DNA from: Candidatus Dojkabacteria bacterium | Lineage (GTDB): Bacteria; Patescibacteriota; Dojkabacteria; SC72 | Reading direction: 5' to 3' | NCBI GenBank assembly: GCA_016182915.1 | Contig: JACPFP010000003.1 | Location: 251,685 to 315,684, forward strand | Length of the DNA stretch: 64,000 nucleotides | Shown here: piece by piece, positions 57,862 to 64,000 of the stretch | Numbering within the stretch: the first letter of the stretch is position 1 | Layout of the letters: each line of letters opens with the position of its first letter | The notes under the pieces: generated by a model | Told to the model about the DNA's origin: nothing | The model's input: only the letters and a program-made list of their open reading frames with translations | The model's database searches: none | Position numbers and translations under genes: made by a program

Positions 57862-58503
57862 CTACTCTACCTTGTCTCCTACAACAATTACCCGTTTAAA
57901 GTTAAAACCAGCAGGCCAACAGGTCATAAGGGTAACTGTATCCCTATCTTTATACTTTCCAAGATATTTTACATCTGTAGGGGAAAAGATTTTAACTTCA
58001 CGAACGCTGTACTTGTAGACAGTACCTTTGTAACTGAGGTATATCTCGTCTCCTTTCTCAAGTTTGTTTATGAGGTAGAAGTATACGTTATATTTTCTCT
58101 GCTCATAGAAGTTTACAGCAGAGTGTGCAAAGAGGAATGTATTTCCTTTCTCATTAGGTAGGGCGGTTCCTTTAGCATGGGCCACACCTTTTGTAAGGGC
58201 GCTTGTATACTCTCTTTCTGCATATGCATTTACATTGGGTATTACTACAGAGTTTGCCCCTATCTTGGGAATATAGATACCGAAGTTTGAGTCTATAATT
58301 ACGGGGTCTTTCTCCTTCTGAACTTCCTCTTCTTTTACAACCTCCTGCTCAACCTTCACGATAACATTCTTAGAAACCTTAGGTGAGAATGTATATGTTA
58401 TGTATGCAGATAGATAGTCTTTGTAGGTGAGAAATATTATAGCGAAACCGAGAAGTAAAAGGAGGCCACCAATAATTTTGATAGGCCTCCTTTTCAAATT
58501 CAT
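57862..58503 (-). CDS. Sortase (class D/E-like)
   Basis: N-terminal TM; IPKIG, AL.KGVAH..G..LP...GNTFLFAHS (His), TLMTCWP (Cys), KRVIV (Arg). ATG 58503 lies 1 nt after the pilin-gene stop; the track's start is 58542. Confidence 0.92.
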   Translation of the reverse strand: MNLKRRPIKIIGGLLLLLGFAIIFLTYKDYLSAYITYTFSPKVSKNVIVKVEQEVVKEEEVQKEKDPVIIDSNFGIYIPKIGANSVVIPNVNAYAEREYTSALTKGVAHAKGTALPNEKGNTFLFAHSAVNFYEQRKYNVYFYLINKLEKGDEIYLSYKGTVYKYSVREVKIFSPTDVKYLGKYKDRDTVTLMTCWPAGFNFKRVIVVGDKVE

Positions 58504-58504
58504 T

Positions 58505-61500
58505 TTACTTAATCGTTGGCTTATTGTTTCTATTTCTGACATAGAGATATGCTACACCACCAGCTCCAAGAAGGGCAACTGCGAGGAGAACATATTTTAA
58601 CCAATCCCAAACAGTATTCTCATCTTTCTTATTAGAATCACCATTTGTACTCTCTTTGTCTCCAGTTCCTTTAACATCCTCTTCTTCATTATCACCATTG
58701 TCACTTCCATTTCCTCCATTCTCTTCCTCATTTCCACCGTTATTGTTATTTCCTGTTCCAGCTCCTTGAACCTCTCCACCTTCATCGATGATGGTTCCAG
58801 GAACAACTGTTACAACTGTGTCTGCAGTGAAGTCTGAGCTGTTATCTGCATCATCTACTGCTCTAACGGCGTAGAAATACTCAAGGTCGCAGTTAGGAAC
58901 GGTATCGGTGTATGTGACTTCTTGATTTGGTGTTGCTGATATAACTGTAACTAGGGTTGAACTGTTCGCAACAAATGATTTCTCTGTTGACCTGAATACC
59001 TGTACTTTTGATGTTTCTCCATCATTTGCGGTTGTAAAGGTGAGGGTATATGTACATGTACCCTTTGTCTTCTCGTAGTTCTTAACTAGTTCTGGTCCTG
59101 TGAGGTCTAGAAGCATTGAAACTTCAGAAGAGGTTGTAGTATCAGCACCTGCATTAGCTACAACTCTAAATTCATATGTTCCTTCAGTTGAAAGAACTGA
59201 GCTATCAACTACACAGTCTGCGCTATCTCCACCTGCTCCAAGATCAAATGTTGATCCGAAGTTTGAGAAGGATCCTTCTCCTGGTTTCATAACCTGACAG
59301 TCTGCGGTTACGTCTCTACCCTCTATGTCTAAAGCTACGAATCCTAACTTCATACTTGTTTTATTAAATACTGTCTTTGGTTGCTCAACTCTAACGGCTA
59401 GGCTGTCTGCGGCATTTGCCTGCATTGGATTCATTAGTGAAAATACACCTGCAAGTATTACGAATGATGCAAGTACTCCTTTTTCCAATCTTCTCTTATG
59501 TGGTCCTACTGCAAATAGTATTAGACCAACGAGAAGAGAGATAATTCCGAGTATAGTTAGAAGGGTTTCAGCTCCTGTATTTGGGAGGGATACTCCTAAT
59601 ACTTCTGCATTTCCTTCTTCAATATCATTTACAACTCTTACGTTAGAGTCTGCGAAGAACCCTACTTCTCCATCTCCAATAACTGGATCGGAAACTACAT
59701 CGTCACCCTTTACCCATGCTAGATCTTCATACGTTCCTGCATCTTGTGATGTGGAGATGTTAGCAAGGTATGTAAGGACAACTTCGTCTCCTTCTTCCAT
59801 ATCGCCTACCAACCATGTTCCGAGTGAACCATATGATGGCTGAGGTACAGGGATTGAGACTCCATTCTTCTTAGCCGTCCAAGTGCCTGACTCATAGCTA
59901 AATCCTTCAGGCATAAGGTCTGTAACAACTACGTTACTCAAAAGGTATGGAGAGTCCGTAGAAGCGACTTCTACATCTGTTGGTATAACCGCTTCTTCAG
60001 TTGCAGGAGGAGCGGTTACAACTAATGTGTATGTAACGGCATCACCAGCCAAAAGATCGACACCACTCTTATCGTTGAACTTTGTAATCTTAAGTTCAGG
60101 ATTTACTACTTCGTTTCTACACTCATATGTAACAGGCTCGTTGCTTCCAACTTCAACGTTGAAGTCATTAACTACATCAAGAATTTTTTCCTCTTCTTTA
60201 ATATTGCATCCGTGGAATATAAACCCATCCTTTTCAAGCTCAGTTAGGTTGTATGACCCAGGATTGAGGTAATATACAGCTACTTTACTATCATCGCCGT
60301 TATCTGAAATGTATGGACTGTCTTCCACTGCAGAAACTACCTGTCCCTCAGAATCTCTAACTTCAGTTTCAAATTCGACTGAAGAGATAACTTCTTCTAC
60401 TCCTTCTTCAACCTCTCTAAAGAGATCCTTCTCAACTGTCAATATTGCAGGTAATTGCTGGTTTACGATTGTAGCGACAGTTGTTTGATTAGGAACGACG
60501 GTTACCTGGACTCCATCTTCACCAGCTTCCTCATCTCCTTCATATCCATAGATCTGGTAATCAGAGTTCTCTAATTCTGTTACGTCGTACTGTCCTGGGA
60601 GTAGGTTAATATATTCAACGTAGTTTCCTGGAGTTACAGTCTCTGTGTTAGAACCATTTAACTCAAATTGGAACTCAGTTGTATCACCAGCTACTAACTC
60701 TCCATTTACATCAACAAGTTGCTTATATACTTGAATTGACCCTACTTGTACTCTGTTTACACAATATACAGTAACGGAATCGCCACTTGTTAGGTCGTTA
60801 AGTTCTAATTCAGCCGCGAGTTCTCCCTCTCTACCAACTCTACAACCCATATTCTCATATCCATATTCAGAGACTTCTGTAAGGTCATAATCACCAGGAA
60901 CAACTGACAGTACAGCGACCTTTGGTAAATCTTCATCATCAGAAATAACGCCAGAGTCTGAATCCGTAGTATCATCTACTCCATCAAGGTTTACAGTGAA
61001 CTCAGTATTATCGTTAATGTCCTGGTCGTCATAGTTGATAACATCTTTATATACAGTTACTGTTGCATCGTTCTGCCAGTTTGTACATGTAACAACATTA
61101 CCTGTTGTATCATTTGAAGATAGAGTTACACCAATTCCACATCCCATTTCAGTATAATCTGGATTATTTGTTTCCTGAACATAGTATGACCCTGGATTTA
61201 CTACCACATTCAAGTATGGATTCTCTTCCGAGATTGTAATCCCTTCATATCCTACTACTGGATCGTTTGTAGCACTATCATAAACTGTAACTGTGAATTC
61301 TTCATTATCTACAACATCTCCTACTCCATTTGGTCCTAATACATTCTTTTCAATATCAAAACTTGCAACTTTCTGTTTATTAATACATGTTACAGAATTT
61401 TCATGGTCATTACTTTCAACAACAATTTCTAAGTTATCACAGTTCATTCTCTCATAATCATCATTTGGAGTTTCTGTTAAGTAGTATGTCCCAGGATTAA

Positions 61501-64000
61501 GATCTTCAAATGTGGCGTCACTTAATTCTGAGATTGTCTTTGTACTTTCGTATGCATATGTTCCTTCTGTAGTTTCTAGGTTTGCAGTTAAGGTCACATC
61601 AAAAGTCGTTGCATCTGCCACTTCACCACCGTCTGGATTTATAACGTCTTTACTTACAGTTATTGAACCAACCATCTGCTGGTTAGTACAGGTTACAATG
61701 GTTTCTGTTGAACCTGAAGTAAGGGTAACTTCGCTTTCGACACAACCTAATGATGCATAATTTTCATTACCTACTTCTTCTACTGTGTAAGTTCCAGGAA
61801 CCAGCCCATCAACTACCAATCCTGTCTGAGATTCCAAAGCTGCTATTAAACCTGACTCGACGGTTTGGCCTTCGAAAAGAATATTTACAGTAAATTCAGT
61901 ACTATCGTAGACTACACTACCATCTGGATTTAACATCAACTTAAAGATTGTCATCATTGCCAACTTTTGATCATTGACACATGTAATACTTACTTCAGAA
62001 CCGCTTGATAACTCACCTGTTGATAAGTTGTTACAATTTACACTTGTATATAGAGGATTCTCTAGCTCGTTTATGTAATATGTATATCCTGGATAAACAT
62101 CATAATAGGCGCTATTTGCTGTCATCCCTTCGTAAATCTCTTTTGTTCCAAGAGCAACTATTACGTTTAGATCAAAGTCTTTAATTTCAACATTGAAGTG
62201 AGTGTCATCACTTACATCTGTCACTCCATCAGGAGCCATAACCTCTTTATCTACATAGATCCTAGCCCAATCCTGACTATTTGTAATGGTAAGGTTAGTT
62301 GATGTATCTTTAACAACAACTAACTGCGCTCCGGAGGTGTTAACGTCTAGATCAGTACTAAATCCAACAAAGTTATAATCGGAAGGAACAATTTCTGTAA
62401 TAGTGTGATTACCAACTCTTACGTTGAAGAACGTTACGAATTCTCCCCCCTGAACAACCTGAGCTGTTCCCATATTTCCATCAAGTACTACTGTGAAATT
62501 TGTATCATCATTTGTAACTTCGAATAGTCCATCTGGAGTTGTCAAAACTTTTGTAACAACAATATCGCCAACTTGGACTTTATTTACACAGTAAATATCT
62601 ACACTTTGGTTGCTTCCGAGTGTGAGGTCTAATGTAGTATCTAATGATCCGGTTGTGGAAATCTTACAACCCATGTTATCAAATCCAAATTCTGCATCCT
62701 CGGTTAGTAGATAATCTCCAGGTACAACAGTGAAAGTTTCAGGGGTCTGTAACGAGAGATCTAGAGATGTATCTTGAATTGTTCCAGTACCTTCATAAAC
62801 AGTACTGTTAACGCCATCTAGGTTTACAGTGAATTCTGTGTTGTCTACAATATTTGAGTTATCATAATCTCTAACGTCTTTATAAACATTTACGGTTGCA
62901 TTCTTTTGAGCGTTTACACATGTAAGAGAAGTACTTCCTCCTGGTGTAATCGTAAATTCATAACTATTACATTGAGATGCATTTGTTTGGTCGTAGTTAG
63001 AGTTACTATCTTCATTAATCGTATACGTACCTGGGTTAAGGGAAAGTACTGCTGGTGAATTTTCTGAGATAGGTTCATTTGAAATAACCTCTGTACCAGA
63101 AAGATCTACTGTAAAGGTGGTATTATCAACAACCTCTGTTATCCCATCAGGTGCAACTACGTTCTTGTTAATAGTTAATGTCCCTTCGCTCTGTCTGTTT
63201 ACAATTATGATCTCTCTTGTCTGTGCTTCTCCTACAAGAATTTCAGCGCCATCGGAAAGGTCTGAGTCTAGTAGATTTCCCTCCATATCTGTAACTGCAT
63301 ATGCAGTGTAACCAGAAGGCATATTCGTTTCGTTTACAGTATAAGTATCAGCTGCAAGGTCTGTATAATTTACAGATCCTCCGTCAGTTAAAGTTTGTCC
63401 GTCTGCTCCATCTAATGTAACAGTAAACAACTCTGAAACGTCTACAATGTCCTCACCGTTTGGTCCCTGAACATCTTTATAAACAACTAATCCACTAGGA
63501 CTAGGGGTGTTATTAAACTGACATGTAGCATCTACAGCAGTATTTGCAGCAGTAACAGTAGCAGTTGCAATAGATCCATCAAACGTACAATTGGTTCCAC
63601 TTCCGCTATCGAAACCGTAGCCAGGAATAGATACTTCCGTTACTGTGAAATTTGTAGGAGTGTCTGCTATAAGATCAATATTCTGAATAACAACTCTATC
63701 GACTCCATCACCATCTCCAATAATACAGTATGATGATTTTCCGTTTATAGAAGGGCTAACATTAAAGCACCATTGGTTTGGGTTTGCCGTTCCATTTACA
63801 ACATCTTTTATAATTGTAAGGTCAGGAAGCTCAATTACTTGATTCGCTGGTACTGGAACATTTTGCTGTCCAGACTGTTCTAAAACCCCGCCAGATGCGT
63901 TTAATCTACTGTGCTGTGAAGATCCATTACAACCACCAGCCTCTTCTGAAAGCTGTAAAGTATACTCAACTAAAGCTGAACCTGTTGGGTGTGAGAATGT
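58505..64000 (-). CDS. Giant pilin-like CnaB/SpaA-repeat sortase substrate with an internal LPNTG signal and a fused second exported protein; 5' end lies outside the window
   Basis: The frame stays open from 64000 (TFSHPTGSALVE...), giving at least 1831 aa. About 12 repeats of ~95 aa (V.K.V...F.V.L...PG.Y.V.E...C.N), a DUF11-like domain, LPNTG at 59573-59587, TM, signal-peptide-like segment, Ig/FN3 domains and a final TM. Confidence 0.9.
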   Translation of the reverse strand, partial: TFSHPTGSALVEYTLQLSEEAGGCNGSSQHSRLNASGGVLEQSGQQNVPVPANQVIELPDLTIIKDVVNGTANPNQWCFNVSPSINGKSSYCIIGDGDGVDRVVIQNIDLIADTPTNFTVTEVSIPGYGFDSGSGTNCTFDGSIATATVTAANTAVDATCQFNNTPSPSGLVVYKDVQGPNGEDIVDVSELFTVTLDGADGQTLTDGGSVNYTDLAADTYTVNETNMPSGYTAYAVTDMEGNLLDSDLSDGAEILVGEAQTREIIIVNRQSEGTLTINKNVVAPDGITEVVDNTTFTVDLSGTEVISNEPISENSPAVLSLNPGTYTINEDSNSNYDQTNASQCNSYEFTITPGGSTSLTCVNAQKNATVNVYKDVRDYDNSNIVDNTEFTVNLDGVNSTVYEGTGTIQDTSLDLSLQTPETFTVVPGDYLLTEDAEFGFDNMGCKISTTGSLDTTLDLTLGSNQSVDIYCVNKVQVGDIVVTKVLTTPDGLFEVTNDDTNFTVVLDGNMGTAQVVQGGEFVTFFNVRVGNHTITEIVPSDYNFVGFSTDLDVNTSGAQLVVVKDTSTNLTITNSQDWARIYVDKEVMAPDGVTDVSDDTHFNVEIKDFDLNVIVALGTKEIYEGMTANSAYYDVYPGYTYYINELENPLYTSVNCNNLSTGELSSGSEVSITCVNDQKLAMMTIFKLMLNPDGSVVYDSTEFTVNILFEGQTVESGLIAALESQTGLVVDGLVPGTYTVEEVGNENYASLGCVESEVTLTSGSTETIVTCTNQQMVGSITVSKDVINPDGGEVADATTFDVTLTANLETTEGTYAYESTKTISELSDATFEDLNPGTYYLTETPNDDYERMNCDNLEIVVESNDHENSVTCINKQKVASFDIEKNVLGPNGVGDVVDNEEFTVTVYDSATNDPVVGYEGITISEENPYLNVVVNPGSYYVQETNNPDYTEMGCGIGVTLSSNDTTGNVVTCTNWQNDATVTVYKDVINYDDQDINDNTEFTVNLDGVDDTTDSDSGVISDDEDLPKVAVLSVVPGDYDLTEVSEYGYENMGCRVGREGELAAELELNDLTSGDSVTVYCVNRVQVGSIQVYKQLVDVNGELVAGDTTEFQFELNGSNTETVTPGNYVEYINLLPGQYDVTELENSDYQIYGYEGDEEAGEDGVQVTVVPNQTTVATIVNQQLPAILTVEKDLFREVEEGVEEVISSVEFETEVRDSEGQVVSAVEDSPYISDNGDDSKVAVYYLNPGSYNLTELEKDGFIFHGCNIKEEEKILDVVNDFNVEVGSNEPVTYECRNEVVNPELKITKFNDKSGVDLLAGDAVTYTLVVTAPPATEEAVIPTDVEVASTDSPYLLSNVVVTDLMPEGFSYESGTWTAKKNGVSIPVPQPSYGSLGTWLVGDMEEGDEVVLTYLANISTSQDAGTYEDLAWVKGDDVVSDPVIGDGEVGFFADSNVRVVNDIEEGNAEVLGVSLPNTGAETLLTILGIISLLVGLILFAVGPHKRRLEKGVLASFVILAGVFSLMNPMQANAADSLAVRVEQPKTVFNKTSMKLGFVALDIEGRDVTADCQVMKPGEGSFSNFGSTFDLGAGGDSADCVVDSSVLSTEGTYEFRVVANAGADTTTSSEVSMLLDLTGPELVKNYEKTKGTCTYTLTFTTANDGETSKVQVFRSTEKSFVANSSTLVTVISATPNQEVTYTDTVPNCDLEYFYAVRAVDDADNSSDFTADTVVTVVPGTIIDEGGEVQGAGTGNNNNGGNEEENGGNGSDNGDNEEEDVKGTGDKESTNGDSNKKDENTVWDWLKYVLLAVALLGAGGVAYLYVRNRNNKPTIK

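Follow-up and report, generated by a model that had tools for sequence, protein, structure and literature searches.

The window analysed here is a stretch of 64,000 nucleotides (positions 251,685 to 315,684 of contig JACPFP010000003.1, assembly GCA_016182915.1) from a Candidatus Dojkabacteria bacterium, a tiny uncultured groundwater bacterium whose 889-kb genome is assembled in 4 contigs and is 94.9% complete. Its last part carries, on the reverse strand, a giant open reading frame (ORF) followed by a sortase gene (Table 1). The ORF encodes a surface fibre that ends with an LPNTG sorting signal and then, in the same frame, a second protein, hereafter the partner, with its own predicted signal peptide and membrane anchor. 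The full gene extends beyond the window to an ATG at window-equivalent position 64471 and its product has 1988 amino acids (aa). This product opens with MKNIFKLLGKYRQ followed by a hydrophobic stretch, which looks like a signal peptide by eye, and a fibre head of about 280 aa precedes the repeats. The part translated from the window contains no stop and reads ...EVLGVS-LPNTG-AETLLTILGIISLLVGLILFAVG-PHKRR-LEK-GVLASFVILAGVFSLMNPMQANA-ADSLAV... across the junction, whereas the C-terminal tail reads RNRNNKPTIK. As 360 residues lie between LPNTG (residue 1629 of 1988) and the stop, the sorting signal is located in mid-chain and not at the extreme C-terminus.

An earlier reading of this DNA, made from the sequence only (the sequence-only reading), had described a complete LPNTG signal about 360 codons before the stop, with the frame reading on into a signal-peptide-like segment, a Cys-bearing two-domain region, an acidic linker and a last membrane helix. 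Translation reproduces the first of these points and all the other elements were also recovered. A misassembly at 59400-59600 could in principle have created such a frame. The junction is, however, identical in contigs from two samples of one study: a 10.9-kb contig (run X1, possibly the source sample) spans 59000-60000 and a 187-nt contig from a second sample of that study (X3) extends over the junction (59390-59576), both with zero differences.

Table 1. Features of the fibre-partner-sortase cassette (window coordinates; residues of the 1988-aa product)
Feature	Residues	Position	Strand	Basis
Fused fibre-plus-partner ORF		58505..64000, cut at window end	-	direct translation
11 tandem SpaA/CnaB-like repeats	328-1455	60107..63490	-	Pfam SpaA and SpaA_2, repeat alignment
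DUF11 base domain of the fibre, ends EVLG	1456-1628	59588..60106	-	PF01345, alignment
LPNTG sortase motif	1629-1633	59573..59587	-	translation, PF00746, TIGR01167, alignment
Hairpin helix 1 (hydrophobic segment of the sorting signal)	1634-1656	59504..59572	-	alignment, model helix
Basic cytoplasmic loop PHKRRLEK	1657-1664	59480..59503	-	translation
Hairpin helix 2 and c-region	1665-1687	59411..59479	-	homologous to signal peptide of stand-alone partners
Predicted signal peptidase I cut after ANA		between 59411 and 59410	-	alignment, -3/-1 pattern
Partner ectodomain, 2 beta-sandwich (Ig/FN3-like) domains	1691-1789 and 1797-1891	58799..59401	-	alignment, model
Disordered G/N/E/D-rich linker	1895-1952	58616..58789	-	translation, model
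Last membrane helix and basic tail of the partner	1953-1988	58508..58615	-	translation, alignment, model
Sortase gene		57862..58542, alternative start 58503	-	Pfam Sortase, NCBIfam, alignment, tree

In the fibre part, matches to PF17802 and PF19403 correspond to the SpaA-type domains, and all 11 SpaA-like repeats share three residues in the repeat alignment: a first-strand Lys, the Glu of a Y-x-L-T-E-like motif and a last-strand Asn. This triad fits the intramolecular isopeptide bonds that the sequence-only reading had attributed to the fibre; the motifs thus agree with that description and the bonds themselves are predicted. A search of PDB sequences with three fibre repeats gave no match. 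The DUF11 base domain scores 34.2 bits in the window's copy (cut-off of PF01345: 24.6) and is matched in 11 of 11 aligned relatives. In the sorting signal, LPNTG is followed by a 23-residue hydrophobic segment and then by PHKRR, which corresponds to the LPXTG-substrate pattern and slightly exceeds or equals the thresholds of the two corresponding families (PF00746, 20.0 bits for a cut-off of 20; TIGR01167, 16.0 bits for a cut-off of 15.9). The V, L and G before the motif, its L, P, T and G and the next A are invariant in the 11-row alignment. Furthermore, among 1356 frames of the genome scanned with a regular expression, only the fused ORF combines a canonical LPxTG with a hydrophobic segment and a basic tail. 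Helix 1 is nearly identical in 8 of 11 genera (T-Y-(L/I)-T-L-G-A-L-I-S-M-I-L-G-F), which is unusual for a helix that is presumably discarded.

The second hydrophobic segment has the organization of a signal peptide. It reads PHKRRLEK / GVLASFVILAGVFSLM / NPMQANA, i.e. a positively charged n-region, a 16-residue hydrophobic h-region and small residues at -3 and -1, so that the basic loop PHKRRLEK, by its sequence, is both the charged tail of the sorting signal and the putative n-region of the second signal. Among the 51 distinct modules (hairpin plus partner) compared below, the residue at -1 of the predicted signal peptidase I (SPase I) site is Ala in all 51, the residue at -3 is V (17), T (11), A (11), I (5), S (4) or M (3), and 41 modules have a Pro or a Gly between -7 and -4. 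The uncharged span of the segment has a median of 20 in fused and split modules alike, a measure that is disrupted in many rows by a Lys in the c-region, and the eight preceding residues are net positive in both sets (medians of +3.5 in fused and +3 in split modules). Cleavage is predicted from the residues at -3 and -1 and from the homology of the segment to N-terminal signal peptides. The genome encodes an SPase I (148.8 bits).

The partner itself consists of two domains, a linker and an anchor. An AlphaFold2 model computed from an 11-row alignment shows helices at model residues 17-38, 46-62 and 337-366, beta-sandwich domains at 75-173 and 181-275 (pLDDT of about 90) and a disordered region at 279-336. 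The four Cys of the region of about 200 aa that follows the second segment are invariant in 11 of 11 aligned relatives and correspond to one conserved pair per domain. This protein belongs to no Pfam or NCBIfam family, Pfam giving only scattered weak Ig-type matches and NCBIfam none; no peptidase family was found among the family-scan matches of the partner part, and a comparison with PDB sequences gave nothing better than an E-value of 0.5. Structural searches point to a common fold: the Foldseek matches in the PDB are generic tandem FN3/beta-sandwich proteins (neogenin FN5-6, transglutaminase barrels, FimC) and those in the ESM Atlas are only generic Ig/FN3 clusters, at 0.90 or less. A paralogous relationship between the partner and the DUF11 base domain of the fibre was also considered and is ruled out by an hhalign probability of 0.2%. 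Motifs resembling G-E-V-(A/K)-G-E-E recur in the linker and recall the EVLG that precedes LPxTG, and three stand-alone partners (L035, L037 and L039) end with (A/E)VLG..ST, a helix and a basic tail, which resembles a sorting signal devoid of its LPxTG.

The fusion is widespread among relatives. A 327-aa partner query gave 17 near-full-length matches in 16 of 60 related genomes, all included in ORFs of 707-2854 aa. The 12 loci inspected, including that of the genome studied here, all keep the same order (LPxTG, helix, basic loop, helix, x-A, domains, linker, helix), with LPxTG located 341-365 residues from the end of the frame. A profile search of 401 genomes of the phylum retrieved near-full-length module matches in 26 of them, 14 further genomes that matched the FN3-like half only being left out of this count. 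The match lies in a long frame (707-3324 aa; families f1, f13, f15, f35, f55 and f133) in 23 of these genomes and in a short one (309-326 aa; families f116 and f148) in the other three. Altogether, 51 distinct modules (loci L002-L077) were compared, 42 fused and 9 split; L034 and L036, mislabelled by a length rule, are counted here as fused. An LPxTG-like motif is present in 40 of the 42 fused modules, one of the two exceptions being cut by a contig end. Metagenome contigs provide 36 non-duplicate modules, matched by their N-terminal part after removal of 5 duplicates and 7 partial matches: 22 are fused, 10 are split, two are long frames without LPxTG according to the regular expression (one of them reads IPKTG) and two are cut by contig ends. 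Therefore, the fusion, which might have been unique, is conserved, as is its LPxTG, and recurrence across many assemblies and families, together with the matching contigs, rules out an assembly artefact or a unique fusion. The record titles of the relatives mention WS6/Dojkabacteria, Woesebacteria, Collierbacteria and Patescibacteria, some other labels (Saccharibacteria, Pseudomonadales) looking automatic. In public records, the fused proteins bear generic names such as 'hypothetical protein', 'LPXTG cell wall anchor domain-containing protein' or 'SdrD B-like domain-containing protein'.

The split relatives indicate what the two halves of the fused chain correspond to. Stand-alone homologues of 312-325 aa, found by a word-index search, carry ordinary N-terminal signal peptides (Met, Lys/Arg, hydrophobic stretch, A-x-A), and their A-x-A site aligns with the internal ANA site of the fused form. 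In seven genome loci (L028, L030, L035, L037, L039, L043 and L045), the module is a separate gene and its upstream neighbour encodes a giant protein (564-1983 aa where complete) that ends with EVLG..LPxTG, a helix and a basic tail. In all seven, the stop of the fibre gene abuts or overlaps the ATG of the partner gene and a sortase gene is located nearby. For example, the two genes are in the same frame and separated by TAA-ATG in L039, whereas they overlap by ATGA in L035. A careful IQ-TREE tree of the module requires 4 fused/split changes that are forced by well-supported branches (bootstrap range 4-4), and a quick tree agrees with it; the changes are counted without a root and hence without a direction. 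This comparison of sequences shows that the fused and split states have switched at least four times and that the system originates from an abutting fibre gene and partner gene. In L034, the big frame has only 381 aa, the fibre being interrupted upstream of LPKTG; this copy is possibly decaying or results from an assembly error.

The sortase gene that follows the fused ORF (Pfam Sortase, 2.6e-25, 89 bits) has two possible starts: translation from the first ATG (58542) would give an overlap of 38 nt with the big frame, whereas the second in-frame ATG (58503), which corresponds to the start proposed in the sequence-only reading, begins 1 nt past the TAA stop. The catalytic residues are intact, as had been stated: the Cys of TLMTC, the His of HS and the Arg lie in columns that at least 90% of 45 related sortases conserve. 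A sortase gene immediately follows the module in 38 of the 48 assessable cases and in 3 more (L004, L055 and L061) whose overlap exceeds the threshold; in L043, L044 and L045, it is located upstream of the fibre gene, and no sortase was found in the short loci L065 and L071-L073. The sortase frames of L021 and L034 are short (155 and 159 aa) and are possibly decaying copies or assembly errors. In a sortase tree, 44 of the 45 cassette sortases group together (SH-aLRT 92), apart from the three other sortases of the genome, the exception being that of L076, a weak-match locus. The window's sortase is nearest to class C, with 80.3 bits against NCBIfam NF033745, which is below the cut-off of 160. 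Its best solved matches are class C or fimbria-associated sortases, those of class A being much weaker. The Asp-Pro-aromatic motif that forms the lid motif of class C sortases is not conserved in the alignment of the 45 sequences.

Taken together, these data lead us to propose that one frame encodes an LPNTG fibre and a membrane-tethered tandem Ig/FN3 partner, and that this precursor is cut by the sortase and probably by SPase I into the same two proteins that relatives encode as adjacent genes (a probability of about 0.7). The N-terminal signal peptide would export the fibre through Sec, the hydrophobic segment that follows LPNTG would stop the transfer and the basic loop would remain in the cytoplasm. 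Helix 2 would then re-initiate export in the manner of a signal peptide, and the last helix would anchor the partner. The sortase would cleave LPNT|G and pass the fibre on, SPase I would cleave after ANA, and a hairpin peptide of about 54 residues would be left over. As lipid II genes are present, the simplest acceptor of the fibre would be a peptidoglycan precursor, so that anchoring to the wall is taken here as the default. Indeed, MraY-type, MurG, FtsW/RodA and penicillin-binding protein (PBP) genes form, with that of one Mur ligase, a dcw-like cluster (G000:C2:16577-26513). The fibres range from 707 to 3324 aa, a variation that fits a single-chain adhesin better than a polymerised pilin. 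The partner would work in a fixed 1:1 ratio, either at the fibre base or alongside the sortase. By a Rosetta-stone argument from gene order and fusion, this 1:1 partnership is probable, as the two genes are repeatedly fused, tightly coupled and inherited along with a sortase of their own. The comparison therefore supports the splitting of a single product into a fibre and a tethered partner that the sequence-only reading had put forward, the two cuts remaining predictions.

Several observations weigh against this proposal. An internal signal peptide located 4-8 residues after a membrane helix may be cleaved inefficiently, and the program that picked the sites was crude: in a few rows it chose a neighbouring A-x-A-type site, including MQA|N instead of ANA|A in the window. 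Two fused modules, L042 (3835-5889) and L109, have no recognisable LPxTG, the motif being degenerate (…EVLGAATGSPT…), while they retain the two helices, the basic loop and the A-x-A site; only signal peptidase could therefore split those chains. L042 also shows no sortase within 14.6 kb, which indicates that the fusion can persist without processing by a sortase. The role of the partner is drawn from gene order and fusion only. Lastly, the whole 95%-complete genome yielded a single Mur_ligase_M match, so that the stem peptide of peptidoglycan may be made by a reduced or highly divergent pathway.

In a first alternative, the sortase cuts LPNT|G and helix 2 is an uncleaved re-insertion anchor; the partner would then be a three-helix membrane protein made of the hairpin, the ectodomain and the last helix. 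The very short loop between the helices (4-8 residues in most fused forms) and the conservation of helix 1, which is at least as high as that of the ectodomain and unexpected for a discarded remnant, are in its favour. This reading is nevertheless unlikely, given the Ala found at -1 in every module, the small or aliphatic residues at -3 and the frequent Pro or Gly in the c-region. Furthermore, true N-terminal signal peptides occupy the homologous position in the 9 split modules, and the four fused/split changes argue for equivalent products from both states. It is far less probable that the internal sorting signal is not used, whether the whole chain is one multi-pass adhesin or the frame is a recent pseudogene-like or assembly accident. 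The fused chains without a recognisable LPxTG in L042 and L109 and the short sortase frames of L034 and L021 would fit such an explanation. It is hardly reconcilable with the conservation of the motif in nearly all the fused forms, with a motif whose L, P, T and G, like the A after it, do not vary among the 11 aligned sequences, with the co-inheritance of a dedicated sortase lineage and with a fusion found in many independent assemblies and families, whose junction is identical in the contigs of two samples. The two proteins could also be made separately by internal initiation at a TTG (59488-59486), with or without ribosome drop-off, which we regard as the least credible of these explanations. 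Such an in-frame TTG does exist in the window's loop, and the loop of 14 of the 42 fused forms contains an ATG, GTG or TTG. The loops of the other 28 contain none of them, so that most partners can be produced only through the long frame, and an internal start is ruled out as a general route to the partner for most forms. Besides, the upstream product has no stop of its own, so that full-length chains would arise anyway.

A different question is which molecule receives the fibre. The sequence-only reading had suggested that the partner could be the acyl acceptor in place of peptidoglycan. As MraY, MurG, FtsW/RodA and PBP genes were found, a peptidoglycan acceptor is plausible, and the suggestion received no support. 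In a broader version, the Thr of the fibre would be linked to the partner, through either a Lys or its new N-terminus, and this link would replace wall anchoring or add to it. The nearest curated class and the nearest solved structures are pilus-type class C sortases, which link proteins to Lys, the partner could extend outward on its long flexible linker, and fusion fixes a 1:1 ratio. The best-conserved Lys of the partner belongs to a Y-x-K motif at the inter-domain hinge and is present in 44 of the 51 modules; it is, however, replaced by V in 5 and by R in 2, and no Lys is invariant. The predicted new N-terminus is also variable (14 different residues at +1 among the 51 modules), and the class C score of the sortase lies at half of the cut-off, without a conserved lid motif. 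Such an acceptor thus seems quite doubtful. More speculative still is the idea that the co-translated partner accepts its own fibre: after both cuts in the hairpin, the dedicated pilus-like sortase would join the Thr of the fibre to the partner, giving a covalent, membrane-tethered and wall-independent organelle, and the leftover hairpin might regulate the sortase. A fibre handed over to the wall and a partner released by SPase I remain, in our opinion, the most probable outcome.

The neighbourhood of the cassette varies among relatives. In split-type loci, the gene after that of the sortase encodes a conserved membrane protein, polytopic and about 280-320 aa long, whose N-terminus is rich in His (…HPHNNHKAK…). 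Such proteins are encoded at L030:8257-9153, L035:10473-11351, L037:4194-5036, L039:10487-11335 and L042:5963-6934, and rfbA/rfbB-like sugar-nucleotide genes follow. This protein may be a further member of the cassette in split-type lineages; no gene encoding it follows the sortase gene in the window. Elsewhere in the genome (G000:C4:56429-58163), another sortase gene is divergent to that of a 309-aa protein that ends with LPESAG, a hydrophobic helix and a basic tail, and the two may form another pair of sortase and substrate, in which the motif is a variant one.

Sortase signals are normally regarded as strictly C-terminal, on which substrate predictors and annotation pipelines depend, whereas here the signal lies in mid-chain in a whole ultra-small lineage. 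In such a layout, the sortase would act, together with signal peptidase, as an enzyme that splits a polyprotein. The comparison also defines a partner family that lacks a Pfam or NCBIfam model and is inherited together with a DUF11-based fibre and a sortase of its own. Its repeated fusion points strongly to a 1:1 functional partnership at the foot of the fibre, which is probably the main adhesive one of the cell. As bacteria of the Candidate Phyla Radiation are thought to live attached to other cells, attachment organelles are central to their biology, and these organelles are poorly known. The system is small enough to be tested in a heterologous Gram-positive host.

The layout shares with canonical LPXTG proteins the pentapeptide, the hydrophobic segment, the basic tail and an adjacent sortase gene, and its N-terminal start, judged by eye, resembles their Sec signal peptide. 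However, the canonical signal is C-terminal, whereas here it lies 360 residues from the end and the chain continues into a second exported protein. The partner family, the dedicated sortase lineage and the two-protein precursor appear undescribed. Full-text searches of the literature gave no description of an internal LPXTG in the Candidate Phyla Radiation or of such a cassette, with the limit that the supplementary tables of PMC6744442 may list the partner among unnamed families. In its passages on the subject, that work describes a sortase family as near-ubiquitous in Microgenomates and reports no partner for it (Meheust et al. 2019, PMC6744442). The sequence-only reading knew of no comparable system; this appears to hold for the cassette, whereas the hairpin layout has a precedent in streptococci. 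The IgA1 protease (ZmpA), ZmpB, ZmpC and ZmpD are described, in the passages devoted to their layout, as carrying an internal LPXTG and, after it, two membrane segments, of which the second bears a putative signal-peptidase site (PMC3518915), and this second segment has been proposed to be a second signal peptide (PMC3518915; PMC7939560).

As far as these descriptions go, the window's ORF shares with the Zmps an LPXTG and a two-helix hairpin with a putative signal-peptidase site. It differs from them by what lies on both sides: in the Zmps, LPXTG is close to the N-terminus, with only a short piece before it, and a zinc metalloprotease lies downstream, whereas here about 1,580 residues of fibre precede LPNTG and a 300-aa Ig/FN3 protein with its own membrane anchor follows. 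The underlying model for the Zmp layout is reportedly that of Bender and Weiser in 2006. Unlike those of the Zmps, the two halves also exist here as separate adjacent genes and the cassette includes a dedicated sortase. The family scans, beyond which none was sought, revealed no sequence relation to the Zmps.

Pilus operons provide another comparison, with a sortase nearest to class C, a SpaA/CnaB-like substrate with isopeptide-type triads and a tight operon. The cassette differs from them by a sortase that scores below the class C cut-off and shows no conserved lid motif, by a single LPxTG protein and by a partner without LPxTG or invariant Lys. Lastly, in Clostridioides difficile, the SlpA precursor gives two associating surface proteins after a cut made outside the cell by a dedicated protease. 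The likeness lies in one precursor that yields two surface proteins in a fixed ratio; here, the predicted cutters would be a sortase and a signal peptidase, acting on either side of a hairpin.

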